A stretch of 37,913 nucleotides of DNA from Sphaerobacterales bacterium (GCA_040376155.1 JBEIRG010000002.1:1-37913), one strand, 5' to 3'. Counted from the first letter of the stretch, positions 5,568 through 37,881 are shown. The notes: generated by a model not told the origin, from the letters alone. Numbers and translations: made by a program.

Positions 5568-7538
5568 CTACTCTCCGTTATCGGGCGCGATCGGGAAGGT
5601 CATCGTGGCGCGCGTGCCGAGGCCCCCCCGCTCGAGGGTGAACGATCCCTGCAGGTCCGAGGTCACGAGCCGCTGCACAATGCGCATGCCCAGCCCGGTG
5701 GACATGTCGGGCGTGAATCCGTCAGGCGGCTGATTGCCGTCGTTCTCCACGGTGACGGTGGCGATGCCCTTGTCCTGGGTGGCGGCGATCGAAATGTGGC
5801 CCCGTTCCGATCCCGAGAAGCCATGCCGGACGGCATTGGCCACCAGTTCATTGACCAGCAGGGCCATGATGGTCGCCTGCTTCGATGGAAGCATGACGTC
5901 GCTGGGGGCGATGTCGAACTGGACGGTCAATCCCGGCGGGATGAGCGTGCGGTGGGCCTCGTCGGCGACATGGCGAGCGATGACGTCGGCGGTGGTGCCG
6001 GCGAGACGGGTTTCGTCACTGAGAAGGTCGTGGATGGAGGCGATGGCCTGCACGCGGCTGACTGCCTCGCGGAGGGCGCCCGCCCACGGGGCGTCCTCGT
6101 TCTTGCGAAGCTGGAGCGAGAGCAGGGCAGCCACCGTCTGCAGGTTGTTGCGGACGCGGTGGTGCATCTCCTGGAGCAGGGCGGATGCGGTGACATAGCC
6201 CTGGAGGGCGTCCTGGTAGTGAGTCGCGTTTTCGATGGCGAGGGTGGCGGCATCGGAGAAGGCCTGCAAGAGGTTGAGTTGGTCTTCCGTGAGCTCGGTT
6301 TCGGTCGCGAGGCGAAGGCAAAGCGCGCCGAGGGTTTCCCGCGCCGAGCGGAGGGGCATGCAGAACAGGCGAGCCGATCCATCGGTGTATTCGAGATCGA
6401 CCGAACCGGGTTCGCCGGACTGGACGACCGAGGTGATCGCGGCGTCGCGGCTGGGTTCGTCAACGGCCTCGCGCATGCGTCCGACGCGGTACTCGATGGT
6501 GGGTCCGGCAATGCTCCCACCGCGGCGCTTGGGCAGGCGAAAGATGCCAGCGGATTCGACGTTGACCAGTTGCACGGCCTGTTCAGCGATGGAGCGGAGT
6601 ACATCGCCAAGATCGAGGTTGGAGGCGATGGTATGGGAAACCCGCTGCAGGGTGCCGAGCTCCGCGATCTTCTGCTGGAGCCGTGCGTCGGTCTGGCTGT
6701 AAAGCCGGGCGTTTTCGATGCTGATGGCGAGTTCACCGGCCATTGTCTCGAGGAAGGCGATTTCGTCAGGCGGATACCTGCGTTGCTCGACGGAGAGAAT
6801 GTTCATCACCCCGACGAGGCGAACGGTGTCTGAGCCGTGGCCGATAAGGAGCGGGACCGACACCTGGGAGGTGTAAAGGTCCTCGCCGGTACTTGGAACC
6901 GGTACGTAGCTCGGATGGTTACGAGCCTCCGGGGCGACGATGACGCGTCGGGTGAGCGCCGCTTCGCCGGTGATGCCGTGCCCGAGGCGCCCGGTGACGA
7001 CGCCGATAGCGGATGGGTTGATGCCGACTGCTGCCCGAAGCGAGAGCGTGCCGGTGCCCTCGTCGTAGAGGGCGAGGGCGCAGGCGTCCGCGCCGGTGGT
7101 CTCGGCGACGACGCGGACGCACGATTCGAGCCGGGTCGCGAGGTCGAGGCTGGCGGTGGCTGTGCGGTTGATGCGGTGCAAGGCCTCCAGCCACGCGATT
7201 GGAGCATCCTTGAGACTTGCTTCCTGGAGGTCGACGGGCGCCTCGGCGGCATGAAACCCGTCCGCGACCCCGGCGAGCGCGATTCCGGCGGCGAGGGTGA
7301 CGGACGCATCGGTGCCGCCGGGGCTGATCCGGTGGAGTGCGCTCTGGAAGACGTCGATGCCTGCCGCCATGGCGTCCTCGAGGGGAACGCTGGCGGTGCG
7401 GGCGGCCATTCCAAACTCCCGGAAGGCTTCGCGCATGGGAGCGGCGCCGATGGTGGCGGCGCCTGCTTCGGAATAGGCGGATCGGATGCGGCCGAGCAAG
7501 TCGTCGGCGAGGGTGTGGATCGAGGTTGCGGAAACCAT
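5568..7538 (-). CDS. Sensor histidine kinase with GAF domains, HisKA_2-type dimerisation/phosphoacceptor domain and HATPase_c
   Basis: 656-aa ORF. H-box LLQEMHHRVRNNLQTVAALLSLQL (HisKA_2 type). ATPase G-boxes (VENDGNQPP, GLGMRIVQRL). Two GAF-like segments. GGAGA SD 8 nt upstream of the ATG. Confidence 0.8.
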   Translation of the reverse strand: MVSATSIHTLADDLLGRIRSAYSEAGAATIGAAPMREAFREFGMAARTASVPLEDAMAAGIDVFQSALHRISPGGTDASVTLAAGIALAGVADGFHAAEAPVDLQEASLKDAPIAWLEALHRINRTATASLDLATRLESCVRVVAETTGADACALALYDEGTGTLSLRAAVGINPSAIGVVTGRLGHGITGEAALTRRVIVAPEARNHPSYVPVPSTGEDLYTSQVSVPLLIGHGSDTVRLVGVMNILSVEQRRYPPDEIAFLETMAGELAISIENARLYSQTDARLQQKIAELGTLQRVSHTIASNLDLGDVLRSIAEQAVQLVNVESAGIFRLPKRRGGSIAGPTIEYRVGRMREAVDEPSRDAAITSVVQSGEPGSVDLEYTDGSARLFCMPLRSARETLGALCLRLATETELTEDQLNLLQAFSDAATLAIENATHYQDALQGYVTASALLQEMHHRVRNNLQTVAALLSLQLRKNEDAPWAGALREAVSRVQAIASIHDLLSDETRLAGTTADVIARHVADEAHRTLIPPGLTVQFDIAPSDVMLPSKQATIMALLVNELVANAVRHGFSGSERGHISIAATQDKGIATVTVENDGNQPPDGFTPDMSTGLGMRIVQRLVTSDLQGSFTLERGGLGTRATMTFPIAPDNGE

Positions 7539-13022: not shown

Positions 13023-15428
13023 CTACCGGCGCGCGGCGGACAGGGCGGGAACGACGCCTGCCATGCCCGGCGCTCCGGGGGTGAGGATCGGGGTGCCCGC
13101 GTCGGTGAATGAACCGGTCGGAACGCTGATGCCTCCCCGCTCGAGACGGGCGTAGGTGACGCCGCCGTAGCCGGGAACGAGTGCGGAGATGTCGCCCATC
13201 ACCTGCGAGGCGTGGCGCTCGGGAACCATGTATCCCATGCGGCGGCAGATGCGACCGAGGATGTCGTTGCCGGATTTTGCTTCGCCCATGGCCGGGATGG
13301 CGGCGCGAACGCGCTGGACGGTTCGGTCGAAACTGGTGAGCGTGCCATCCTTCTCCATCGCCATCGCGAGTGGAAGGACGACGTCGGCGAGGCGACCGAG
13401 CGGGGTGTCCTTGTAGTGATCGGCGACCACAAGGAACTCGAGTTTCGGCAGAACCGCGTAGAGGCGCGGGTCGATCTCGGCATCGCGGCCAGCGACGGTG
13501 TTTTCAATGTACATCGCGGTCACATCGCCCGATTCGATGGCGGCGACGAGGCGGTCGATCTGGTGACCGTTCTCTGCCGGAAGGGCGCGAACCGGAACGA
13601 AGCCGTTGCTGGTGGTGGCACGCTCGCCCCACCGGGCGAGCAGGGCCTGCTCGAAGCGGGCGCGAAGCTCGTGATCGCCAACGTGGCCACCTCCGGGGAA
13701 GCGGAGCGGGTGGGCGCCCATGTCGACCGCGCCCTGGTAGTTGGCCGGGCCGCGAGGCGTGGCGACGCCGCCTCCCGGGCGGCCGAGATTGCCGGTCAGG
13801 ATGGCGAGATCGATGCAGGCGGCGACGATCTCGCCGGCATCCTCATCGCCCTCGCCGAGGTGGGCGACGGTGCTGTAGATGAGGGAGGGGCCGTAGCCGC
13901 CCTCGGGTGTTTCGTGCTTGATGCCGGCGCCGCCGGTGCCGAAGATGACCGCGGCGCGGTCGATCAGGTCGGCGTCGCAGCCGGTGGCCGTGGCGACCTG
14001 ATCGAGGGTGTGGTCGCGATGGCGGTGATGGGCCTCCGCGCCGGGCGCGGCGAGACCGAGTTCGACGATGCGGTTGGTGATGCCGCGAATGAGGGTTGCG
14101 ATCGTGCCGCGGTTGGGGTTGAGCCAGACCGGGGCGCGGTGGCAGAGGGCGTAATCGTCGTGGGAGATGACGACGTACTTCGCCTCGCGATAGAGCGTCG
14201 AGTGGTAGAACCAGTAAGAGGCAACCGGCTCGGTCCGGGCGATGCTCGGCCCGACGACAAGCCCCGCCCTGGCGTCGGTAAAGAACTCCTGCATGTTGTT
14301 CGTGGCCGTCACGTCGCGCCCAAGTCCGAGGGCGGCGGCGCGCTCGACAGCTCGCTGGGCCGGAGTGAGCAGGCGGTCGATGTTCGGGCTGGCCATTACT
14401 GCGCGGGTAAAGGCTTGCAGGGAGAAGATCTCTTCGTTGGTGGAGTCAGGCGAGGCGAGCGCGGCGAACGTGCTGCCCTGATGGTGGGCCAGCGATTCGG
14501 CGACCAGATCGACCGCATCATCCCACTGCACTTCATAGGCAAGGCCGGTCTGGTCGTCCCTGACGGCGGGGTAGTAGAGCCGATCCTGATGCTGGACCTG
14601 CTCGTGTCCCCAACGGCCGAATTCGCAGGTATAGCCGTGATTGACGCCGCGCTCCCAGAGGTGGGTGGTGCGCCGGGCAATGCCGCGGTTCGCCTCGACG
14701 TTGATGGTGCAGCCGACGTCGCAGAAACCGCAGATGGTCTCGGTGCTGTCGAGCTCCCACGGGTGGTGCCCGAAGTGGCGGTCGGTGAGCGCGCCAACCG
14801 GGCAGACGGCGATGCACATGCCGCAGTTGGTGCAATTGGTCTCGGAGAGGTCCTCGCCGAAGGCAGGAGCAATCGTGGCCTCAAGCGAGCGATTCTGGGA
14901 CTCGATGGCGAGTGCGCCGATCATCTCGTCGCAGACGCGGGTGCACCGATTGCACATGATGCACCGGTCCCACTTGTAGTCGATGAGTTCGCTGAAGTGC
15001 ACGTAGGGCTGGCTGAACTTGGGCCTGCGGTAGGGATTGGCGTTGATGTTATGCAGATACGTGTTGTCCTGGAGATAACACTCGCCGGACTTGTCGCAGG
15101 TGGGGCAGTCGAGCGCGTGGTCAATCAGGTACATCTGGAGGATGAATTGACGGGCTTCCATTACCTGTGGCGAGTGCGTGAGCACGTCGATGCCTTCAGT
15201 GAACGGAGTGGCGCAACTCTCGATCAAACCGCCGCGCCTGCCGAGGACCTCGACCGTGCAAATTCGGCAGGAGCCCCAGGTGCGGAGCAGGGGCTGATAA
15301 CAGAGGTTGGGAACCTCGATGTCGGCCATCCGGGCCGCCTCGAGGATGGTGGTGCCGGCCGGCACGGTCACATCGAGGCCGTTGATCTTGCCGGTGACCA
15401 TTTTCTGCTCGGTGCGGGTCGTCACCAT
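13023..15428 (-). CDS. nuoG: NADH-quinone oxidoreductase subunit G-like (2Fe-2S/4Fe-4S N-terminus + molybdopterin-oxidoreductase-fold domain)
   Basis: VTGKINGLDVTVPAGTTILEAARMADIEVPNLCY...GSCRICTVEV is the NuoG 2Fe-2S module. Followed by HxxxCxxC and Cys clusters (CIMCNRCTRVC, CTNCGMCIAVCPVGAL). ATG 15428 is preferred (GAGG 12 nt upstream); the track starts at GTG 15446. Confidence 0.8.
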   Translation of the reverse strand: MVTTRTEQKMVTGKINGLDVTVPAGTTILEAARMADIEVPNLCYQPLLRTWGSCRICTVEVLGRRGGLIESCATPFTEGIDVLTHSPQVMEARQFILQMYLIDHALDCPTCDKSGECYLQDNTYLHNINANPYRRPKFSQPYVHFSELIDYKWDRCIMCNRCTRVCDEMIGALAIESQNRSLEATIAPAFGEDLSETNCTNCGMCIAVCPVGALTDRHFGHHPWELDSTETICGFCDVGCTINVEANRGIARRTTHLWERGVNHGYTCEFGRWGHEQVQHQDRLYYPAVRDDQTGLAYEVQWDDAVDLVAESLAHHQGSTFAALASPDSTNEEIFSLQAFTRAVMASPNIDRLLTPAQRAVERAAALGLGRDVTATNNMQEFFTDARAGLVVGPSIARTEPVASYWFYHSTLYREAKYVVISHDDYALCHRAPVWLNPNRGTIATLIRGITNRIVELGLAAPGAEAHHRHRDHTLDQVATATGCDADLIDRAAVIFGTGGAGIKHETPEGGYGPSLIYSTVAHLGEGDEDAGEIVAACIDLAILTGNLGRPGGGVATPRGPANYQGAVDMGAHPLRFPGGGHVGDHELRARFEQALLARWGERATTSNGFVPVRALPAENGHQIDRLVAAIESGDVTAMYIENTVAGRDAEIDPRLYAVLPKLEFLVVADHYKDTPLGRLADVVLPLAMAMEKDGTLTSFDRTVQRVRAAIPAMGEAKSGNDILGRICRRMGYMVPERHASQVMGDISALVPGYGGVTYARLERGGISVPTGSFTDAGTPILTPGAPGMAGVVPALSAARR

Positions 15429-15645
15429 CGTGCTCGTTCGCCTCACAGGTTCGCCCGAAAACCAGCCCGTTCAGGCATGAACGGACCGCCGGGTCGCGTC
15501 GCTCGATCCGTCGGCGATTCTAGCATAGGGAGGCGCAGACTCCCGGTGCGCGGCGGTCATTCGGGGTACGGACGCGTGCTAAACTCTGGAGTTGGTGCCG
15601 CATCCATCCGGGGGGCGGCGACGCATCGCGGCAAGGCGGGGAATC

Positions 15646-17212: not shown

Positions 17213-18496
17213 ATGGTCTCGCAGGTGACGGGCGTGGACGCGCCGCAGTCCGAGCATCGCGATCTGTTCGACGTCGCGGTGGAGCAGTTTGAGATCGCCG
17301 CCGACGTGCTGGGCCTCGATGAGGACATGCGGAAGATCCTCAGCCACTGCCAGCGGGAATTGACCGTCAATTTTCCGGTCGAGATGGACGATGGCTCGGT
17401 GCAGGTCTTTACCGGGCACCGGGTCCAGCACAATGGCGGCCCCGGCCCGACCAAGGGCGGAATCCGCTATCACCCCTCCGTCACGCTGGCCGAGGTCAAG
17501 GCGCTCGCCATGTGGATGACGTGGAAGTGCGCGGTCGTCGGGTTGCCATATGGCGGCGCGAAGGGGGGAGTGACGGTCAACCCAAAGATTCTCTCCCAGA
17601 ACGAACTGCAGAACCTGACGCGCCGGTACACGGCGGAAATTTCGATCATGATCGGTCCGAACAAGGACATCCCGGCTCCTGACGTGAACACAAATCCGCA
17701 GATCATGGCCTGGCTGATGGACACCTACTCCATGACCATGGGGTACTCCGTCCCGGGCGTGGTGACTGGCAAGCCGATCGTGCTGGGCGGCTCGGAGGGG
17801 CGCAACGAGGCGACCGGGCGCGGTCTGGTGTACGCAGTGCAATCGGGCGCCGCAGCCCTCGACATGGATCTGTCGAAGACGGCAACCGTCGTGCAGGGGT
17901 TCGGCAACGTCGGCGGCACGGCTGCGCGGCTGATGGCGGAAGCCGGGTCGAAGGTCGTCGCGGTGAGCGATCAGCATGGAGGCCTGTACAACCCCGCGGG
18001 ACTGGATCTGGCAGGGGTGACGGCGCACCTTGCTCGCACCGGGTCTGTGGTCGGGTATGCCGGGGCAGACGCGATCACGAACGATGAACTGCTGGTGCTG
18101 CCCTGCGACATCCTGATTCCCGCAGCGCTCGAGAATCAGATTACCGCGGAAAACGCCGACAGGATCACGGCGAGGATGATCGCCGAGGGCGCGAATGGCC
18201 CGACCACGCCGGAGGCGGACAAGATCCTCTACGACAAAGGCGTCTTTGTGCTGCCGGACATTTTCGCCAATGCCGGCGGCGTGACAGTGTCCTACTTCGA
18301 GTGGGTTCAGGCGCTGCAGGCTTTCCCGTGGACGGAGGAGCAGGTCAACGAGCGGTTGAAGCAGATCATGCATCGCTCCTTTGACGCGGTGTACGAGATG
18401 GCCCGAAAGCACCACGTTCACATGCGGACGGCGGCGCTGATGCGTGCGATCGACCGGGTGGCGGAGGTGCAGCGGCTGCGGGGCATCTACCCGTAG
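17213..18496 (+). CDS. gdhA: Glutamate dehydrogenase (Glu/Leu/Phe/Val dehydrogenase family)
   Basis: GGAGG 11 nt upstream of ATG 17213. Catalytic region GPTKGGIRYHP, PYGGAKGG. Rossmann motif VQGFGNVG. Confidence 0.85.
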   Translation: MVSQVTGVDAPQSEHRDLFDVAVEQFEIAADVLGLDEDMRKILSHCQRELTVNFPVEMDDGSVQVFTGHRVQHNGGPGPTKGGIRYHPSVTLAEVKALAMWMTWKCAVVGLPYGGAKGGVTVNPKILSQNELQNLTRRYTAEISIMIGPNKDIPAPDVNTNPQIMAWLMDTYSMTMGYSVPGVVTGKPIVLGGSEGRNEATGRGLVYAVQSGAAALDMDLSKTATVVQGFGNVGGTAARLMAEAGSKVVAVSDQHGGLYNPAGLDLAGVTAHLARTGSVVGYAGADAITNDELLVLPCDILIPAALENQITAENADRITARMIAEGANGPTTPEADKILYDKGVFVLPDIFANAGGVTVSYFEWVQALQAFPWTEEQVNERLKQIMHRSFDAVYEMARKHHVHMRTAALMRAIDRVAEVQRLRGIYP

Positions 18497-18620
18497 GCCC
18501 GCCTGCGGCAGTACTGGCCAGAGGCGGGCGCGGCGGCGATGCCGCGACCGGGCGCATGGTCTCCGAACGGCAGCAGGGCGTATCCTCAACGGCAGCAGGT
18601 TGACCCGGAGGCGCGCCACG

Positions 18621-20138
18621 TTGAACCCCATCGAGCGAGAGATCGACCAATCGGGCGGCGTTGCCGGGTCGACGACCGAATCCGACGGTTCCTCACCGGA
18701 GGACCAGTCCCCGGGTGGAACGGTCGAGTCCGGCCGATTCTGGCGATGGCTGTTTTTCGGCTCGATCGTGGCGCTGGCGGTGGTGCTGGCCTTCGGCGCG
18801 GGGATGATCGCCGAGCGGGTGCTCTTTGCCGGCGGGGGGCTCTTCGACCGCGCGCGCGCGTCCGGAGGGCTGACGACCGGTCAGCAACAACTGCCGGAGA
18901 GCGTCTACCCGCGCTATGCGGAGACCCGCGATCTGCTCGAAACCGAGTTTCTCTTCCGCCCGGACGGCGCGGAGGCGCAGGCTACCTTCGCGGCGCAACT
19001 GGACCAGGGCGCGATGGCAGGGGTGGCGGCAGCCGCGGCGACTCCGGTTGCGTCGTTCGAGGAGTTCCAGCGCAATCTCGACTACGGCGCCGTGCAGGGG
19101 ATGACCGGGACGCTCGAAGATCCGTACACAACCTTCCTCGCGCCGGTCGATCATGCGCCGCTGCAGGAGGAGCTGAGTGGCGAGTACGAGGGAATCGGCG
19201 TCTGGGTCGAGCATCCTGAAGGAACTTACACGATCGTCGCGCCGATTCCGGGGTCTCCGGCGGATGAAGCGGGCATTCGCCCGGGCGATGTGCTGCTGAA
19301 GGCCGACGGCAAGAACCTGACGGGCATCCCGGACGATGAGGCGCTGCGGCTGATTCGCGGGCCGGCAGGGACGTCGGTCGTCCTGACTATCCAGCGGAAG
19401 GGACGAGAAGAGCCGTTCGACCTCGAGGTGGCGCGACGCGCCATCACGGTGCCGACGGTAATGAGCACCCCGCAGGCCGATGGCCGGGTGGCATGGATTC
19501 AGGTGGGCATCTTCGGCGACAAGACCACCGCGCAACTCGATGAGGCGCTTGTGCAGGCAAAGAAGGACGGCGTCTCCGGCATCGTGCTCGACCTTCGAGG
19601 GAATGGCGGCGGCTGGGTGACGGCGGCACAGGAGATGATCGGACGGTTCGTCCCGGCCGATCGCGGCGCTGCGCTCTACGAGGACGCCACGATGTCGAAG
19701 GATGATGAGATGCGCGCCGAGCCGATCGTGGGCGGCGGCACGGAGATGTTCGACATTCCGCTGGCGGTGCTGGTGGATGGCGGGAGCGCGAGCGCGTCCG
19801 AGATCGTCTCCGGAGCGCTGCGGGACTATGACCGCGCGAGATTGGTCGGAGAGACGACTTTCGGCAAGGGCCTCGTGCAGCGGGTTCACGATTTCGACGA
19901 CGGCAGTTCCGCCCGGATCACCTTCGCGCGGTGGCTGACGCCCGAGAAGCTTCCGATCACTGAGGATGGGATCGTGCCGGATATCGTCGTCGCCTACCCG
20001 GACCCGCCCAACGGGACCGATCCGCAACTGGCGGCGGCGGTCGATCTGGTGCTGCAGGAGGCGGGATTGCCTGCCGCCACGCCGCCCGCGCCGGTTGCCA
20101 CGCCGGAGGATCTGCCGCAGGCGACGCCGGTTTCGTAG
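18621..20138 (+). CDS. S41 family C-terminal processing peptidase with PDZ domain and N-terminal membrane anchor
   Basis: PDZ (PGSPADEAGIRPGDVLLKADGKNL). S41 motifs DLRGNGGG, SASASEI, TFGKG. Proposed TTG start at 18621, 10 nt after GGAGG. The track ORF from 18444 overlaps the gdh 3' end. Confidence 0.8.
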   Translation: MNPIEREIDQSGGVAGSTTESDGSSPEDQSPGGTVESGRFWRWLFFGSIVALAVVLAFGAGMIAERVLFAGGGLFDRARASGGLTTGQQQLPESVYPRYAETRDLLETEFLFRPDGAEAQATFAAQLDQGAMAGVAAAAATPVASFEEFQRNLDYGAVQGMTGTLEDPYTTFLAPVDHAPLQEELSGEYEGIGVWVEHPEGTYTIVAPIPGSPADEAGIRPGDVLLKADGKNLTGIPDDEALRLIRGPAGTSVVLTIQRKGREEPFDLEVARRAITVPTVMSTPQADGRVAWIQVGIFGDKTTAQLDEALVQAKKDGVSGIVLDLRGNGGGWVTAAQEMIGRFVPADRGAALYEDATMSKDDEMRAEPIVGGGTEMFDIPLAVLVDGGSASASEIVSGALRDYDRARLVGETTFGKGLVQRVHDFDDGSSARITFARWLTPEKLPITEDGIVPDIVVAYPDPPNGTDPQLAAAVDLVLQEAGLPAATPPAPVATPEDLPQATPVS

Positions 20139-32930: not shown

Positions 32931-33431
32931 TCAGTCCTGATCCTCGGCGGGCGGCAGTGGAGTCAGGCTCGCGTGTGGCGCGTGGTGCGGTGCGATGAAT
33001 TGAGGTTCCTCGACGTATTTCTTGACGAGGTAGAGGGCGGCCGTCGTCGCGATGGTGGCGACGGCGGCGATCATGAGGAATCCTGCCCCGGTGAGCAAGC
33101 CGACAGCGGCGACGACCCAGATGCCTGCTGCCGTGGTGAGACCGCGGACCTTGCGGCCGGTGGTGAGGATGACCCCGGCGGCGAGGAAACCGATGCCCTG
33201 CACGATGGTCGAAGCCACGCGGCCGGGATCGCTGAGTTCTCCGATGCCTGCCATTTCGCGCGAAATCAGGAGACCCGCAATCATGAACAGCGCCGCGCCC
33301 TGCGAGACGAGCATGTAGGTGCGGATGCCCGCTGGCTTGTCGGCGCGTTCGCGCTCCAGCCCCACGAACGCCCCGAGCAGCATGGCGATTGCCATCCGCT
33401 TCAGGGCCTCGATGTCATCGATGGGGATCAC
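32931..33431 (-). CDS. mgtC: MgtC/SapB family membrane protein
   Basis: GTG 33431 lies 6 nt after GAGGAG. RMAIAMLLGAFVGLERE...GIRTYMLV...IVQGIGFLAAGVIL...GLTTAAGIW is the MgtC signature. The upstream part of the track ORF contains a strong hairpin. Confidence 0.8.
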   Translation of the reverse strand: MIPIDDIEALKRMAIAMLLGAFVGLERERADKPAGIRTYMLVSQGAALFMIAGLLISREMAGIGELSDPGRVASTIVQGIGFLAAGVILTTGRKVRGLTTAAGIWVVAAVGLLTGAGFLMIAAVATIATTAALYLVKKYVEEPQFIAPHHAPHASLTPLPPAEDQD

Positions 33432-33496
33432 GCGGCACTCCTCGCAGACGCTCGGCAATCGGTGGCGGGCGGCGCGGGCAGGAATCCGGGATGGCT

Positions 33497-33530
33497 GCGG
33501 GGTGGAACCGGACACCCGGTTCCACCCCGC
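33497..33530 (-). terminator. Very stable hairpin between the Grx-PDZ gene and mgtC
   Basis: Perfect 15-bp stem gcggggtggaaccgg/ccggttccaccccgc with a 4-nt loop, extendable by 2 pairs, 12 nt after the upstream stop. No U-tract. Confidence 0.45.
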
Positions 33531-33541
33531 GGGATCGGGTG

Positions 33542-34096
33542 CTAGAACTGGAGTCGGGCGATGTGCTCTTCCTTGCCGCGCCAGAAGTGCACGCTCACGC
33601 TGTCACCGGCCTTGAGGGTGTCGATGAGACCATCGAGCTTGCTCATCGTCGGGGTGCGCTTGCCAGCGACGCCGCTGATGACGTCTCCGGGTTCGATCCC
33701 GGCGCGGGCCGCGACGGTGTCCGGGCGAACCTTGCCGACGTAGACGCCCTTGACGCCCTCGGGCAGGCCCGAGGCCTTTTCCGGGTGGCGGGTCAGGTAT
33801 TCGTCGGCATCGGCGGCGAGAATCCCGAGAGGCGGCCGCTTTTCGCCGCCATACTTCTGCGCGAGGCGCATGAAGGCGGCGCGATCGAACCCGAGAATCA
33901 CTTCGCCTTCGGCGACGGTGACCGGGACGCCCTGCTGGCGGCTCAGCTTGACCATTTCCATCGCCGCGTTGTAATCACGGGCGACATCCTTCTCGACGTA
34001 GGGCACATTGTTCTGGCGAAGGAACTCCTTCGCGCGATCGCACCACGGTCAAGTGTCGGTGTAGTAGACCGTGACGGGAGCGGTTTGCTCACTCAT
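33542..34096 (-). CDS. Glutaredoxin-like (YruB/NrdH-type) + PDZ fusion protein with an in-frame TGA at the first redox Cys (candidate selenocysteine, U-P-W-C); alternatively a fresh pseudogene
   Basis: ATG 34096 (GGAG 9 nt upstream) gives MSEQTAPVTVYYTDT-[TGA 34049-34051]-PWCDRAKEFLRQNNVPYVEKDV... This is in frame with the track ORF 33542-34006, whose first codon is an internal GTG. The rest of the Grx fold follows (GVPVTVAEGEVILGFD), then a PDZ (GVYVGKVRPDTVAARAGIEPGDVISGVAGK). Confidence 0.6.
34016..34033 (-). promoter_or_regulatory. SECIS-like stem-loop downstream of the in-frame UGA
   Basis: The mRNA reads GCGAAGG-AGUU-CCUUCGC: a perfect 7-bp stem starting 15 nt after the UGA. The loop begins 22 nt after it, with G as the second loop base. 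Confidence 0.4.
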
Positions 34097-34193
34097 CGTG
34101 TCGTTCTCCTGCTGGTGAGCGCCCAGCGCTCAGGGCATTTCCTGCCGTTATGGTAACAGGCTCAGCTGGCAAGCCGGGAGGTTCGCGTGGGGA

Positions 34194-35810
34194 TCATTCC
34201 CACTCGATGGTCGCCGGTGGCTTGGAGGAGATGTCGTAGACGACGCGGGTAATCCCGCGGACCTCGTTGACGATGCGGTTGCTGGCGCGGGCGAGCAGAT
34301 CGTAGGGGAGGCGCGCCCAGTCGGCCGTCATCGCATCCTCGCTGGTGACGGCGCGCAGGGCGCAAACGCGACCATAGGTTCGGTCGTCGCCCATGACGCC
34401 AACGGACCGGACGGGCAGCAGGACGGCGAACGCCTGCCAGATCTCGGCAGCGAGTCCTGCGGCGTCGAGTTCGGCGCGGAAGATGGCGTCTGCCCGGCGC
34501 AGGAGGTCGAGGTCGTCCGGGGTGATTTCGCCGATGATGCGGACGGCAAGGCCGGGTCCCGGGAAGGGGTGGCGGCCAACGATCTCCTCCGGCAGGCCGA
34601 GCTCCCGGCCAACGGCGCGGACCTCGTCCTTGAAGAGGAACTTCAGCGGTTCGAGCAGTTTGAATTGCATGTCGGCCGGCAGGCCGCCGACATTGTGGTG
34701 GGTCTTGATCTTTGCGGCTGCCTTGGTGTCGGCGGTCGTGGATTCGATGACATCCGGGTAGAGCGTGCCCTGCGCGAGGAACTCGAAGGGGCCGGCTCTT
34801 TCGGCCTCGGCCTCGAAGACGCGGACGAAGGTCTCGCCAATGATCTTTCGCTTCTGTTCCGGATCGGTGACGCCAGCGAGGCGGGACAGGAAGCGATCGC
34901 TCGCATCCACGGCGACGAGGTTCATTCCGAAGTTGCGGGAAAAGACGTCCCGGACGAGATCACCCTCGCCAAGGCGCAGCAGGCCGTTGTCGACGAAGAC
35001 CGGGGTGAGGCGGTCGCCGATGGCGCGATGGATGAGGGCGGCAGCGACCGCCGAGTCGACGCCGCCGCTGAGACCCAGCAGCACGCGGCCCTCGCCGACC
35101 CGGTCGCGGATGTCGCGGACGGCTGCGTCGATGAACGATTCCGCGGTCCAGGTCGTGCGGCACCCGCAGACATTCACGAGGAAGTTCCGGATGACGTCCG
35201 ACCCACGTGGGGTGTGGACGACCTCCGGGTGGAACTGGATGCCCATGGTCGACCCGCGCCCAATGGCGGCGACCGGGGCATTCGGCGTGCTCGCAAGCAC
35301 CGCCCAGCCATCCGGGGCCTGCTCGACGTGATCGCCGTGGCTCATCCAGACGTCGAGGGTTTCGGGCAATCCGGAGAAGAGCGGGCAGGATCGGTCCGAG
35401 ACGGCGATGGTGGCGGGGCCGTACTCCCGCTGATCGGCCGGGGCCACGACGCCGCCGTGCGCGCGGGCGAGGAGTTGCAGACCATAGCAGATGCCGAGGA
35501 CGGGCAGACCCGACGAAAGAACCCAGTCCGGCAACTGGGGCGACCCTTCGCCATACACGCTCGCGGGACCGCCGGAGAGGATGACGCCCCTGGGCCCAAG
35601 GGGGGCGACCTCGTCCCAGGTTACGTCATGCGGCAGGAGTTCACTGTAGACCCCGGCCTCGCGGACGCGGCGGGTGATGAGTTGCGCGTACTGGCTGCCG
35701 AAATCGAGAACGACGACGACATCGAATGCTGCGCCCGATTCGGCGACCAGCGCGGCTGCATCGCCGATGAAGGCATCGAGTTTGGCGTGATCGTGGGCAT
35801 CAGGGGCCAT
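34194..35810 (-). CDS. guaA: GMP synthase (glutamine-hydrolysing)
   Basis: GATase domain [20 protein letters not shown]...ICYGLQLL...HPE. ATP-PPase P-loop [12 protein letters not shown]. Canonical C-terminus [12 protein letters not shown] 35810 chosen; the track ORF extends to 35912. Confidence 0.9.
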
Positions 35811-35922
35811 GGTCACCGGCTGGCGATCCTCTCGCGTGGCCACCTGGGCGGCGAAAGCGCCCTGCTGGCGGCAGATGAAACCATTGTGCCGTGAACCCGC
35901 CGCCGGGGCCATGCACAGGAGG

Positions 35923-36384
35923 TCAGGTTTCCGCGGGGTCCGGGCCGTCGAGCAGCACGTAGGTCCGATCGAACTCCCATTCGGCGATGGTTTCGATCTC
36001 GACCTCGAGCCGGGGATGAAGCGGATCGATCTTTTTCGTCAGGTGAAGATCGACGACGGTTCGGTCATCGAAGCCGAGCGCGCGGCCGAGGGCGTCGAGG
36101 GTGATCTTGAGGCCGCCGTCGAGGTCGCGCCGGTAGGGCGTCTCGAAGTGAAAGGTGAGGTAGACCCCGAGCAGGCTGTCGCCGAGGGCGCGCTCGAGCG
36201 CAGGGGTAACCACTCCCGACCGGCGCAGCCCCTCGATCAGCTTGCCCACGTCCTTGCCGAAGGTCTTCGCGGTCTGGCTGAGCACCCGGCGCTTGCCGAC
36301 CGTAGCGTACTGGTTGTTGACCCCCGGCGGCATCGGCAGGGTGAGCCGGAGCGTGACGGGAGCAGCAGGCTGGTTTGGCGCCAT
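35923..36384 (-). CDS. rusA: RusA-family crossover junction endodeoxyribonuclease (Holliday junction resolvase)
   Basis: 153 aa. PPGVNNQY, and an acidic catalytic cluster [16 protein letters not shown]...[13 protein letters not shown], match the RusA pattern. Confidence 0.65.
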
Positions 36385-36449
36385 GCCGAATCCTTCCAGG
36401 CGGGTCGTGCGTCAGGCAGGGAGTGTACGGTCCGCGGTCAGCATCATGG

Positions 36450-36863
36450 TCAGGGCCGGGTGTTGGGCTGGGAGGGGTCGAAGCTGCCGGTGTCGCTGGC
36501 GAGATCGTCGTCGAGCCGATCCGGGCGAGCGGCGTACCGGTCGGACTCCTCGCCGGGCGGGGTATCGCCGAGGCCCCAGTCGACATCGGGCCGGGGGGTG
36601 AATGCGCCGAGGGTCATGAGGGCGGCCTCGCGCAGGTCGAGCGGGGCGGTGGTCATCAGCACTTCAGCGAGGCGCTGGGCCTGCCGCGAGTCGACGCCGG
36701 CGTCCGGAGCGAGACCAAACTCCCCCGCCATCGCTGCGAGAACGTGCGGCAGGCCGACACCGAAGGCGCGCGCGATGGCGTCGGCCGTGAACCGGGCGTC
36801 GATGCCCTGCGATTCGCCTGCCGGGAGGGGAGCGTCGTCTGGATTGCCGGAACTGGCGGACAT
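36450..36863 (-). CDS. Hypothetical protein with a possible helix-turn-helix and an acidic disordered C-terminus
   Basis: ATG 36863 lies about 8-9 nt after GAGGG. FTADAIARAFGVGLPHVLAAMAGEFG looks HTH-like. The upstream part of the track ORF (to 37151) is antisense to rnz. Confidence 0.4.
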   Translation of the reverse strand: MSASSGNPDDAPLPAGESQGIDARFTADAIARAFGVGLPHVLAAMAGEFGLAPDAGVDSRQAQRLAEVLMTTAPLDLREAALMTLGAFTPRPDVDWGLGDTPPGEESDRYAARPDRLDDDLASDTGSFDPSQPNTRP

Positions 36864-36966
36864 GATGGTGGCCCTCGTCTGGTCGCCCGTGCCGCCGTCG
36901 GCCCGGAGCCCTACACTCGCGGGTGCAGGATACATGGCCCAACGCGGCGCATGGGCGGGAGGATCG

Positions 36967-37881
36967 ATGCTGGAGCCGGTGCTGCTGGGGACGGGAGGGA
37001 TGTTGCCGCTGCCCGGGCGCTGGCTGTCGAGCCTGCTGCTCCGGCATGAAGGCGACCTTATGCTCTTCGATTGCGGCGAGGGAACGCAGGTCGCCTGGCG
37101 GGTGACCGGATGGGGATTCAAGCGTCTGGCTGCGATCTGCATCACGCACACGCATGCCGATCACGTCTCGGGATTGCCGGGGTTGCTGCATGCCGTGGCG
37201 AACGCCGGGCGCACCGAACCGCTCCCGATCTTCGGGCCGGTTGGGACAAAGCGCATCGTGCGGGGCCTCCGGACCATCGCGCCGGATCTGCCGTTCACGG
37301 CTCCGGTCCGGGAACTCGCCGGTGGCGTGCCTTTTTCGCTGCCGGGAGGCCTGCGCGGGTCGGTGGCAGCCGGGTCACATGCGCTCCATGTGCTGGCGTA
37401 TCGGATCGACGTGCCGCGAGGTCCGAGGTTCCTCGCCGAGCGCGCTGCCGATCTCGGCGTGCCGAGGGCCGACTGGGGGCGGCTCCAGTCGGGAAAGCCG
37501 GTCAGGGTGGGCAGGGCGCGGATTGCGCCGGAGCAGGTGCTGGGGCCAGCGCGCGAGGGGCTTTCGTTCGCCTACGTAACGGACACCCGGCCGCTCCCGG
37601 CCCTCGCCGCGCTCGCGCGCGGGGTGGATCTGATGGTCTGTGAGGGAACGTACGGCAACCCGGACGATCAGCGAAAGGCGATCGAACGCTGCCACATGAC
37701 CTTTGCCGAAGCCGCGACACTGGCCAGCGACGCCGCCGCGCGGAGGCTCTGGCTGACACACTTCAGCCCGGCGCTCGATGATCCCGTCGCGTGGCGCGAG
37801 CAGGCGGCGGCGATTTTCCCCACGGTGGAAATCGGCTACGCGGGACTGAGGACGCTGCTCTCATTCAGGGAGGATGAGTGA
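36967..37881 (+). CDS. rnz: Ribonuclease Z (metallo-beta-lactamase fold tRNA 3' endonuclease)
   Basis: MLEPVLLGTGGMLPLPGRWLSS.., histidine motif ITHTHADHVSG, C-terminal LWLTHFS. GGGAGGA just upstream of ATG 36967. The 690-aa track ORF from 35809 is an artefactual N-terminal extension antisense to rusA and the hypothetical gene. Confidence 0.85.
   Translation: MLEPVLLGTGGMLPLPGRWLSSLLLRHEGDLMLFDCGEGTQVAWRVTGWGFKRLAAICITHTHADHVSGLPGLLHAVANAGRTEPLPIFGPVGTKRIVRGLRTIAPDLPFTAPVRELAGGVPFSLPGGLRGSVAAGSHALHVLAYRIDVPRGPRFLAERAADLGVPRADWGRLQSGKPVRVGRARIAPEQVLGPAREGLSFAYVTDTRPLPALAALARGVDLMVCEGTYGNPDDQRKAIERCHMTFAEAATLASDAAARRLWLTHFSPALDDPVAWREQAAAIFPTVEIGYAGLRTLLSFREDE

Follow-up and report, generated by a model that had tools for sequence, protein, structure and literature searches.

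A probable selenocysteine codon in the redox motif of a glutaredoxin-PDZ protein distributed across the Chloroflexota

Introduction

Glutaredoxins (Grx) carrying selenocysteine (Sec) in a UxxC motif are an established and experimentally verified family of bacterial selenoproteins (Kim et al. 2011, as cited in PMC13188914; PMC1794560), with examples that include Grx1 of Clostridium sp. OhILAs/C. oremlandii and the Geobacter sulfurreducens protein WP_010943784.1 (PMC13188914; PMC1794560). They have been reported from few organisms: three in 2006 (PMC1794560) and five of more than 5200 genomes in 2016. Here we analyze a gene encoding a glutaredoxin-PDZ (Grx-PDZ) protein on the minus strand of a 37,913-nucleotide stretch of DNA from a Sphaerobacterales bacterium (GCA_040376155.1, JBEIRG010000002.1:1-37913; hereafter, the window), in which an in-frame TGA codon falls at the position of the first active-site cysteine. 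This gene had been put forward, in a reading of the window that made use of no database searches (hereafter, the sequence-only reading), as a candidate unannotated selenoprotein. Comparative analysis of the gene and its orthologs indicates that the TGA is very probably a genuine Sec codon at the active site of a 184-residue, putatively cytoplasmic, Grx-PDZ thiol/selenol-disulfide oxidoreductase. Since Sec-containing glutaredoxins with a UxxC motif are already known, the protein would constitute a widespread new member with an added PDZ domain, and not a new kind of system.

Results

An in-frame TGA occupies the active-site cysteine position of a glutaredoxin-PDZ gene

Direct translation of the minus strand from the ATG at 34096-34094 to the TAG at 33544-33542 yields a frame of 184 codons, the sole interruption of which is the TGA at 34051-34049 (Table 1). 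In order of translation, this frame encodes MSEQTAPVTVYYTDT, the TGA codon and then PWCDRAKEFLRQNNVPYVEK...IARLQF, followed by the TAG stop. The mechanical list of open reading frames (ORFs) for the locus begins instead at GTG 34006, with a product of 154 aa. Re-reading of the frame, of the TGA position and of the ORF start established that the locus had been described accurately in every detail by the sequence-only reading, including its claims that the frame is identical before and after the stop and that the listed ORF starts at GTG 34006.

Alignment of 21 full-length homologs places the TGA at the invariant C16 of a C16-P17-W18-C19 motif, in agreement with the earlier assignment of the stop to the first cysteine of C-P-[WY]-C, and the cis-Pro motif V57-P58 is also invariant in homologs. 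With a cysteine put in place of the stop, the window protein matches the Pfam Glutaredoxin family (PF00462) at residues 8-67, spanning positions 1-60 of the 60-position profile with a score of 52.9 bits (cut-off 22.9), and it matches a Pfam PDZ domain at residues 110-178. The Grx domain would be incomplete without the 30 codons preceding the called start, and its elements follow the beta1-alpha1-beta2-alpha2-beta3-beta4-alpha3 order of the Grx fold. In the AlphaFold2 (AF2) model of a Cys homolog of the same length (P0003; mean predicted local distance difference test score of 90.6), strand beta1 spans residues 8-12 and helix alpha1 residues 17-28, with residue 16 directly preceding the helix. 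A product begun at Val31 would therefore be devoid of the core of the Grx fold, as had been anticipated for the GTG 34006 product on the grounds that it would lack strand beta1 and the redox helix. Three features together identify the N-terminal domain as a glutaredoxin: its PF00462 score above threshold, its U-x-x-C motif where helix alpha1 begins and its cis-Pro loop.

The C-terminal half of the protein resembles the PDZ domains of HtrA-type proteases. A conserved K-R-P-P-L-G-[IL] segment located just before and at the start of this domain aligns with KRGELGI of DegP PDZ1, profile positions 80-183 match only the PDZ region of DegP (residues 254-352), and Foldseek matched isolated HtrA PDZ domains with target TM-scores of 0.75-0.80, returning no solved structure that matched both domains together. 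Identification of the gene product as an HtrA/DegP (S1-C) serine protease was rejected, because the similarity to DegP/HtrA is limited to the PDZ domain and the Pfam search of the window protein detected no protease domain.

In the NCBI, JGI, ENA and Logan-derived sets, TGA alleles of this gene are recorded as proteins of 109-154 aa named 'PDZ domain-containing protein' (MFM9107595.1, HEX5500732.1, HEU0114489.1) or 'S1-C subfamily serine protease', and no U-containing entry is present among the 120 best protein matches. The public records examined carry PDZ protein or serine protease names only, so the description of the gene as unannotated holds for them, and the truncated annotation conceals both the redox domain and the predicted selenium dependence of the protein.

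A covarying hairpin follows the TGA codon

Beginning 16 nt after the UGA, the window presents an 18-nt hairpin, GCGAAGG-AGUU-CCUUCGC (34033-34016), with a 7-bp stem, a folding energy of -10.4 kcal/mol, a loop in which a G at position 2 precedes a U, and a UGA-to-loop distance of 22 nt. Published rules for the bacterial selenocysteine insertion sequence (bSECIS) stipulate a stem of 4-16 bp, a loop of 3-9 nt with a G in its first two positions, a spacing of 16-37 nt and a minimum free energy of -7.5 kcal/mol or lower (PMC13188914), and the window hairpin conforms to all four of them. A hairpin is found at the same place in 51 of 53 TGA alleles, with a spacing of 21-23 nt; the exceptions are the divergent loci L038 and L039, which harbor a third, interrupted form (GGAG-UAC-CUCC within CGCG/CGCG). 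The loop nucleotides G33 and T34 are invariant in all 51 aligned sequences, and the hairpin occurs in two registers distributed according to phylogeny (alignments A3 and A4 of Sec-form loci L002-L083). In the Thermomicrobiales, a 7-bp stem encloses an AGUU tetraloop (GC[G/U]AAGG-AGUU-CCUU[C/A]GC), and in the Anaerolineae and Chloroflexia an 8-bp stem encloses a GUU or GUA triloop (G[C/U]GAA[A/G]GA-GU[U/A]-UCUUUC[G/A]C).

Base pairing is preserved in 98.1% and 97.3% of the pairing cells of the two alignments, as opposed to 38-71% with slid partners, and compensatory exchanges are evident in the stem (UA 13 and GC 9 at one pair; CG 12 and UA 12 at another). The observed covariation score was reached by none of 500 shuffles. 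The mean local hairpin energy is -9.7 kcal/mol in Sec forms versus -5.5 kcal/mol in Cys forms (Mann-Whitney p = 3e-9), and in a strict isolated-hairpin test the bSECIS rules are passed by 30 of 53 Sec forms versus 1 of 29 Cys forms. The search for a bacterial SECIS after the UGA, which had been proposed as a check on the selenoprotein interpretation, thus returned a hairpin at the right distance that follows the bSECIS rules, covaries and is specific to TGA forms. A crude scan of the whole window for in-frame TGA codons accompanied by a hairpin yielded no convincing candidate apart from the Grx site.

TGA and cysteine codons alternate at the same locus across the Chloroflexota

In a survey with each species represented by a single genome, 80 Chloroflexota loci were recovered, with TGA at codon 16 in 50 species, TGC or TGT in 29 and an unresolved state in one. 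Both states are well represented in the Thermomicrobiales-like half of the set, with 18 Sec and 19 Cys forms. The gene order guaA, Grx-PDZ, MgtC and, on the opposite strand, SpoU methylase is common to both allele types in the Thermomicrobiales, and the 35 loci with conserved synteny include both Sec and Cys forms, indicating that TGA and Cys alleles are orthologs and not paralogs. Inspection of orthologs, which had been suggested as a means of determining whether relatives encode Cys or TGA at this position, therefore revealed both, at exactly the same codon. Interchange of Cys and Sec at the attacking redox residue had been invoked as the sign of a selenoprotein, and the numbers of Cys and TGA species, together with the covarying hairpin specific to TGA alleles, bear this out.

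Protein searches retrieved hundreds of Grx-PDZ proteins of 181-190 aa from the Thermomicrobiales and other Chloroflexota, with CPWC in 102 and variants such as CPYC in 6 of the 120 matches listed. The closest relatives among the matches listed (83-85% identity) are all called as fragments of 137-154 aa without a Grx domain. The DNA of loci L002 and L003 contains the same in-frame TGA, with synonymous differences upstream and a nucleotide-identical stretch downstream.

On a neighbor-joining tree of the 80 sequences, Fitch parsimony inferred at least 14 changes between Sec and Cys, with Sec as the root state. Two Cys alleles from the Anaerolineae (L042 and L052) preserve near-intact SECIS-like hairpins at codons 7-13 after the CxxC cysteine (GUGAAAGAAUUCCUUUCAC and GCGAAAGCGUUCCUUUCGC, respectively), which look like relics of a recent Sec-to-Cys conversion. 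The Sec root obtained by parsimony and the SECIS remnants in Cys alleles suggest repeated Sec-to-Cys loss. The ancestral state of the family hence appears to have been Sec, with many independent replacements by Cys thereafter, a pattern that has been described for bacterial selenoproteins in general (PMC1794560).

The reading frame is conserved on both sides of the TGA

Contigs encoding exactly the product of the miscalled ORF are present in at least nine independent assemblies from this species (a JGI metagenome plus eight Logan assemblies of different SRA runs). These assemblies differ by 1-4 single-nucleotide polymorphisms per 575 nt and all nine contain the TGA, standing in for the inspection of raw reads at 34049-34051 that had been proposed as a check. 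Pairwise ratios of nonsynonymous to synonymous change (pN/pS) amount to 0.46-0.54 over the nine codons that precede the TGA, 0.27-0.40 over the 14 codons from the TGA to the miscalled start and 0.30-0.38 further downstream, demonstrating purifying selection on the reading frame on either side of the UGA. At every Sec locus, an in-frame start lies 10-18 codons upstream of the TGA, and in most Sec-form loci this upstream start is preceded by GGAG- or GAGG-type motifs. No other frame disruptions were detected among the 80 Chloroflexota loci, and ORFs are full length except in two loci with shorter recovered sequences. Additional disruptive mutations in relatives, which would have pointed to pseudogene decay, are accordingly absent, and ORF lengths cluster at full length.

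These results bear on the possibility that the TGA arose by a single-base TGC-to-TGA nonsense mutation or by a sequencing or assembly error, making the gene a pseudogene or the stop an artifact. TGA is indeed one base away from TGC, TGC or TGT is present at this codon in 29 related species and gene callers treat TGA as a stop, but the same TGA recurs in nine independent assemblies and in 50 species-level genomes, within full-length ORFs whose frame is otherwise undisrupted. Combined with the purifying selection upstream of the stop and with a SECIS-like hairpin that is specific to TGA alleles, this recurrence leaves mutation or error with a negligible probability, and we consider this explanation effectively refuted already.

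The constraint on codons 17-30, which matches that on the rest of the gene (pN/pS 0.27-0.40), is also at odds with the UGA acting as a genuine stop, an arrangement in which a 15-residue leader peptide would be followed by a separate PDZ-only protein translated from GTG 34006 or another start, with the hairpin having a regulatory or re-initiation role. Public annotation, with its PDZ-only products of 137-154 aa, and the location of the hairpin between the UGA and the internal GTG are in line with such an arrangement. GTG 34006, however, is not preceded by a Shine-Dalgarno-like sequence, and the position of the internal start varies among orthologs, giving products of 137, 139, 147, 151 and 154 aa, which implies that it is not conserved. 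The resulting protein would, moreover, retain a Grx fragment without beta1 and alpha1, whereas orthologous Cys alleles encode an uninterrupted fusion. Genuine termination at this codon is hence highly improbable.

Selenocysteine machinery and the assessment of alternative decoding

Several observations weigh against parts of this account of the locus. Searches with ARAGORN for tRNA-Sec and with tblastn using E. coli SelA, SelB and SelD as queries detected no selA, selB, selD or tRNA-Sec in the 37.9-kb window or in approximately 1.18 Mb of related loci, the rest of the genome lying outside their coverage. When the minimal hairpin is scored in isolation, 23 of the 53 Sec forms do not reach the threshold of -7.5 kcal/mol: the energies are -7.1 to -6.7 kcal/mol in 14, and the other nine score -6.2 kcal/mol or weaker or lack a qualifying hairpin. 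The stem overlaps a conserved AKEFL peptide, and Cys alleles encode similar peptides without the hairpin; conservation of the hairpin sequence by itself is therefore confounded by coding, and the case rests on the compensatory pairs and on the contrast with Cys forms. No Rfam family reached its gathering threshold in the window, and the Rfam SECIS_3 match overlapping the UGA (34034-34079, minus strand; 14.7 bits against a gathering threshold of 63, E = 2, in a search extending to E values of 10) is not significant and does not constitute evidence. Lastly, a strong hairpin located after the TAG stop, described below, weakens the idea of an operon with the downstream MgtC-family gene.

The sole exception to the negative tblastn results was a 31%-identical SelA-like stretch in L065, a locus from a Chloroflexi genome in which a TGA-type Grx-PDZ gene has a 400-aa ORF (5692-6894) approximately 3 kb upstream of it. 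This ORF falls short of the 463 aa of E. coli SelA, and the match, with 31% identity over 160 aa, covers only SelA residues 190-343, so it provides no evidence that the ORF encodes SelA and the candidate was rejected. A tblastn search of PLSDB with E. coli SelB yielded no Chloroflexota SelB among 40 of the 422 matching records. Among cultured Thermomicrobiales, SelD, SelA and SelB are recorded in a published survey for Sphaerobacter thermophilus, Thermomicrobium roseum and Nitrolancetus hollandicus (Peng et al. 2016, PMC5029168 Tables S1 and S2), with nine, five and eight known selenoproteins, respectively (PMC5029168). Other Chloroflexi, such as Anaerolinea, Chloroflexus, Herpetosiphon and Ktedonobacter, are entered there as Sec users too (PMC5029168). 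The Sec trait is therefore established in the Thermomicrobiales at the level of the order.

The lack of detectable Sec machinery in the window and in the related loci fetched would also be compatible with read-through of the UGA without a Sec system, either by near-cognate Cys or Trp insertion or through lineage-specific reassignment, generating a CPWC- or WPWC-type protein, and low-level UGA read-through does occur in bacteria. In the same loci, however, other orthologs of the Grx-PDZ gene end in TGA, so that UGA terminates ordinary genes on these contigs and no general reassignment has taken place, and the position of the hairpin, its loop G-U and its stem length are those of the SelB-binding bSECIS type. 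SelA, SelB and SelD are, furthermore, present in cultured members of the order, and the codon lies exactly at the redox Cys, the classical site of Sec/Cys exchange (PMC1794560). We therefore assign only a slight probability to read-through of this kind, somewhat above that of genuine termination. Decoding as Sec remains by far the most probable interpretation, and the gene combines several of the features by which selenoproteins are recognized: a UGA aligned to the conserved redox Cys of its homologs, a bacterial SECIS hairpin after the UGA and coding conservation on both sides of it.

Proposed mechanism

If decoding follows the established bacterial mechanism, SelB in complex with Sec-tRNA(Sec) would bind the hairpin while the ribosome is positioned at the UGA, and Sec would be inserted in place of termination. 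By analogy with glutaredoxin and thioredoxin chemistry, Sec16 at the N-terminus of helix alpha1 would attack a substrate disulfide or other oxidized sulfur, and Cys19 would resolve the intermediate to yield a selenenylsulfide, which could be recycled by a reductant such as thioredoxin reductase or a low-molecular-weight thiol. NCBIfam matches to the N-terminal domain comprise a mix of Grx3, NrdH, mycoredoxin and YruB families, and glutathione dependence should therefore not be assumed. The PDZ domain might tether the enzyme to a C-terminal or hydrophobic client peptide, with the MgtC-family neighbor as one candidate; such client tethering is plausible but speculative.

Taken as a whole, these elements outline a broader scenario in which Grx-PDZ would be a distinct, uncatalogued selenoprotein subfamily, ancestral in the Chloroflexota and among the commonest selenoproteins of the largely aerobic soil and desert Thermomicrobiales, with the PDZ domain targeting a selenol-based reductase to its clients, possibly including the adjacent MgtC. 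We advance this composite scenario tentatively, as a possibility that is rather less likely to hold in its entirety than to fail in some part. If true, the protein would be a substrate-tethered seleno-oxidoreductase without a characterized counterpart.

Gene neighborhood and other features of the window

The coordinates of the features identified at the Grx-PDZ locus are compiled in Table 1. MgtC is a conserved downstream neighbor of the gene in the Thermomicrobiales, and the two products may be functionally linked. After the TAG stop, the minus strand contains a perfect 15-bp GC-rich hairpin at 33497-33530 (GCGGGGUGGAACCGG-GUGU-CCGGUUCCACCCCGC), within a 66-nt segment that folds with -36.3 kcal/mol (z = -4.0) and lacks a U-tract. 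This hairpin overlaps the start of the longest possible MgtC ORF, at 33515. In relatives, the corresponding position is occupied by hairpins that are just as strong but unrelated in sequence. The element may be a terminator lacking a U-tract or an mRNA-stabilizing element, and its presence here and the analogous hairpins of relatives favor a transcript boundary over tight co-translation with MgtC.

Table 1. Features of the Grx-PDZ locus (window coordinates)
Feature	Position	Strand	Remarks
Coding sequence, predicted Sec-containing glutaredoxin-PDZ protein	33542..34096	-	184 codons including the Sec codon, then TAG; full length relative to Cys homologs of 181-190 aa
Shine-Dalgarno sequence AGGAG	34106..34110	-	9 nt upstream of ATG 34096-34094; read directly
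UGA codon 16, probably read as selenocysteine, first position of U-P-W-C	34049..34051	-	aligned to invariant C16
TGC codon 19, resolving Cys of U-P-W-C	34040..34042	-	invariant in homologs
Putative bacterial SECIS core hairpin	34016..34033	-	5' arm 34033-34027, loop 34026-34023, 3' arm 34022-34016
Glutaredoxin-fold domain, residues 8-82	33851..34075	-	Pfam PF00462, AF2 model of same-length homolog, PDB glutaredoxin sequence matches
HtrA/DegP-type PDZ domain, residues 92-183	33548..33823	-	Pfam PDZ families, DegP PDZ1 profile matches, Foldseek
GTG, Val31 in context; false start used by gene callers (154-aa product)	34004..34006	-	
Gene for a membrane protein of the MgtC family, immediately downstream	32931..33515	-	Pfam MgtC; synteny in 35 loci

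Three further genes of the window were noted. The minus-strand gene at 13026-15446 codes for a protein of 807 aa that contains 2Fe-2S, 4Fe-4S and molybdopterin-oxidoreductase domains and is 28% identical to E. coli FdhF across 572 aa. This protein was considered as a second selenoprotein and rejected: its domain set is of the NuoG type, its gene contains no TGA and, by eye, it has neither Cys nor Sec where it aligns to the FdhF Sec140 motif. On the plus strand, 18444-20135 encodes a peptidase of the S41 (Ctp-type) family whose PDZ domain spans residues 249-329 and which is unrelated to the Grx-PDZ finding. A 690-aa plus-strand ORF at 35809-37881 shows metallo-beta-lactamase-fold matches only at residues 407-652 and overlaps a conserved RusA-like gene on the minus strand (35923-36384); its true start probably lies far downstream of 35809.

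Discussion

The results presented here correct a systematic annotation error affecting the TGA alleles of this gene and, with Sec as the very probable reading of the TGA, would add a widespread member to the selenoproteome of the Chloroflexota, including that of soil Thermomicrobiales. The matched series of Sec and Cys orthologs at a syntenic locus, with its minimum of 14 switches, should be useful for the study of Sec retention and replacement and of SECIS decay, and the combination of Grx and PDZ domains suggests disulfide or selenenylsulfide chemistry directed at particular clients. The understanding of Sec recoding itself is unchanged, as the mechanism at work would be that of an ordinary bacterial SECIS. 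We found no publication on a Sec-Grx-PDZ fusion or listing one for the Chloroflexota, in a search that did not extend to the contents of BSepDB (PMC13326102).

The hairpin of the window shares with the E. coli fdhF SECIS and the bSECIS model (Zhang & Gladyshev 2005, as cited in PMC13188914) a stem-loop within the coding region 3' of the UGA and a small loop with G followed by U. Its loop G-U occupies positions 27-28 counted from the U of UGA, and the hairpin has no bulged U and no sequence similarity to fdhF. In fdhF, the loop G-U is found at positions 23-24.

Several protein families approach the Grx-PDZ protein in sequence or architecture. Among NCBIfam families, YruB (TIGR02196) matches the N-terminal domain best, aligning residues 8-76 to positions 2-70 of its 74-position profile, and 'glutaredoxin-like YruB-family protein' is the JGI label for many Cys homologs. 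The score of 79.2 bits, however, lies below the curated cut-off of 88.55, and YruB proteins are single-domain proteins without the PDZ domain seen here. The Trx7/PDZ selenoprotein family (NF041199) has in common with the window protein a thioredoxin-superfamily redox domain, a PDZ domain, Sec and a tendency to be mislabeled as a serine protease, but its motif is CxxU, as opposed to UxxC, in a profile of 390 positions, and the match of the window protein, confined to the PDZ part, reaches 25.3 bits where 300 are required. On the basis of the common CxxU motif and of PDZ- or protease-like naming, NF041199 is probably the family reported from GOS data as 'putative secreted serine protease MucD' (PMC2398784). 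The GOS MucD family was rejected as the same family as Grx-PDZ because of its CxxU motif.

The UXX-star families (NF041212, NF041114, NF041211 and NF047338) also have a Grx-like fold. The window protein falls short of their cut-offs, with 59 bits against 66 for NF041212 and 30-38 bits against 72-100 for the subfamilies; a Cys homolog, P0107, reaches 66.9 bits against the NF041212 cut-off of 66 and is named UXX-star by NCBI. UXX-star family 1 has a UxxT motif and two Sec residues, the second of which, judging from the family name, would lie in a C-terminal U-x-x-stop, whereas the window protein has a single predicted Sec in UxxC, a PDZ domain and a terminus ending in ...RLQF.

The closest described relatives are the Sec-containing glutaredoxins (PF00462), with which the window protein shares the Grx fold, the predicted use of Sec in place of the attacking Cys (UxxC), a hairpin in the coding region after the UGA and the existence of Cys orthologs. 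Known Sec-containing glutaredoxins are described as small oxidoreductases, whereas the window protein is a 184-aa fusion to an HtrA-type PDZ domain with the motif U-P-W-C, and its family extends across the Chloroflexota, with the TGA form present in 50 of the 80 species examined.

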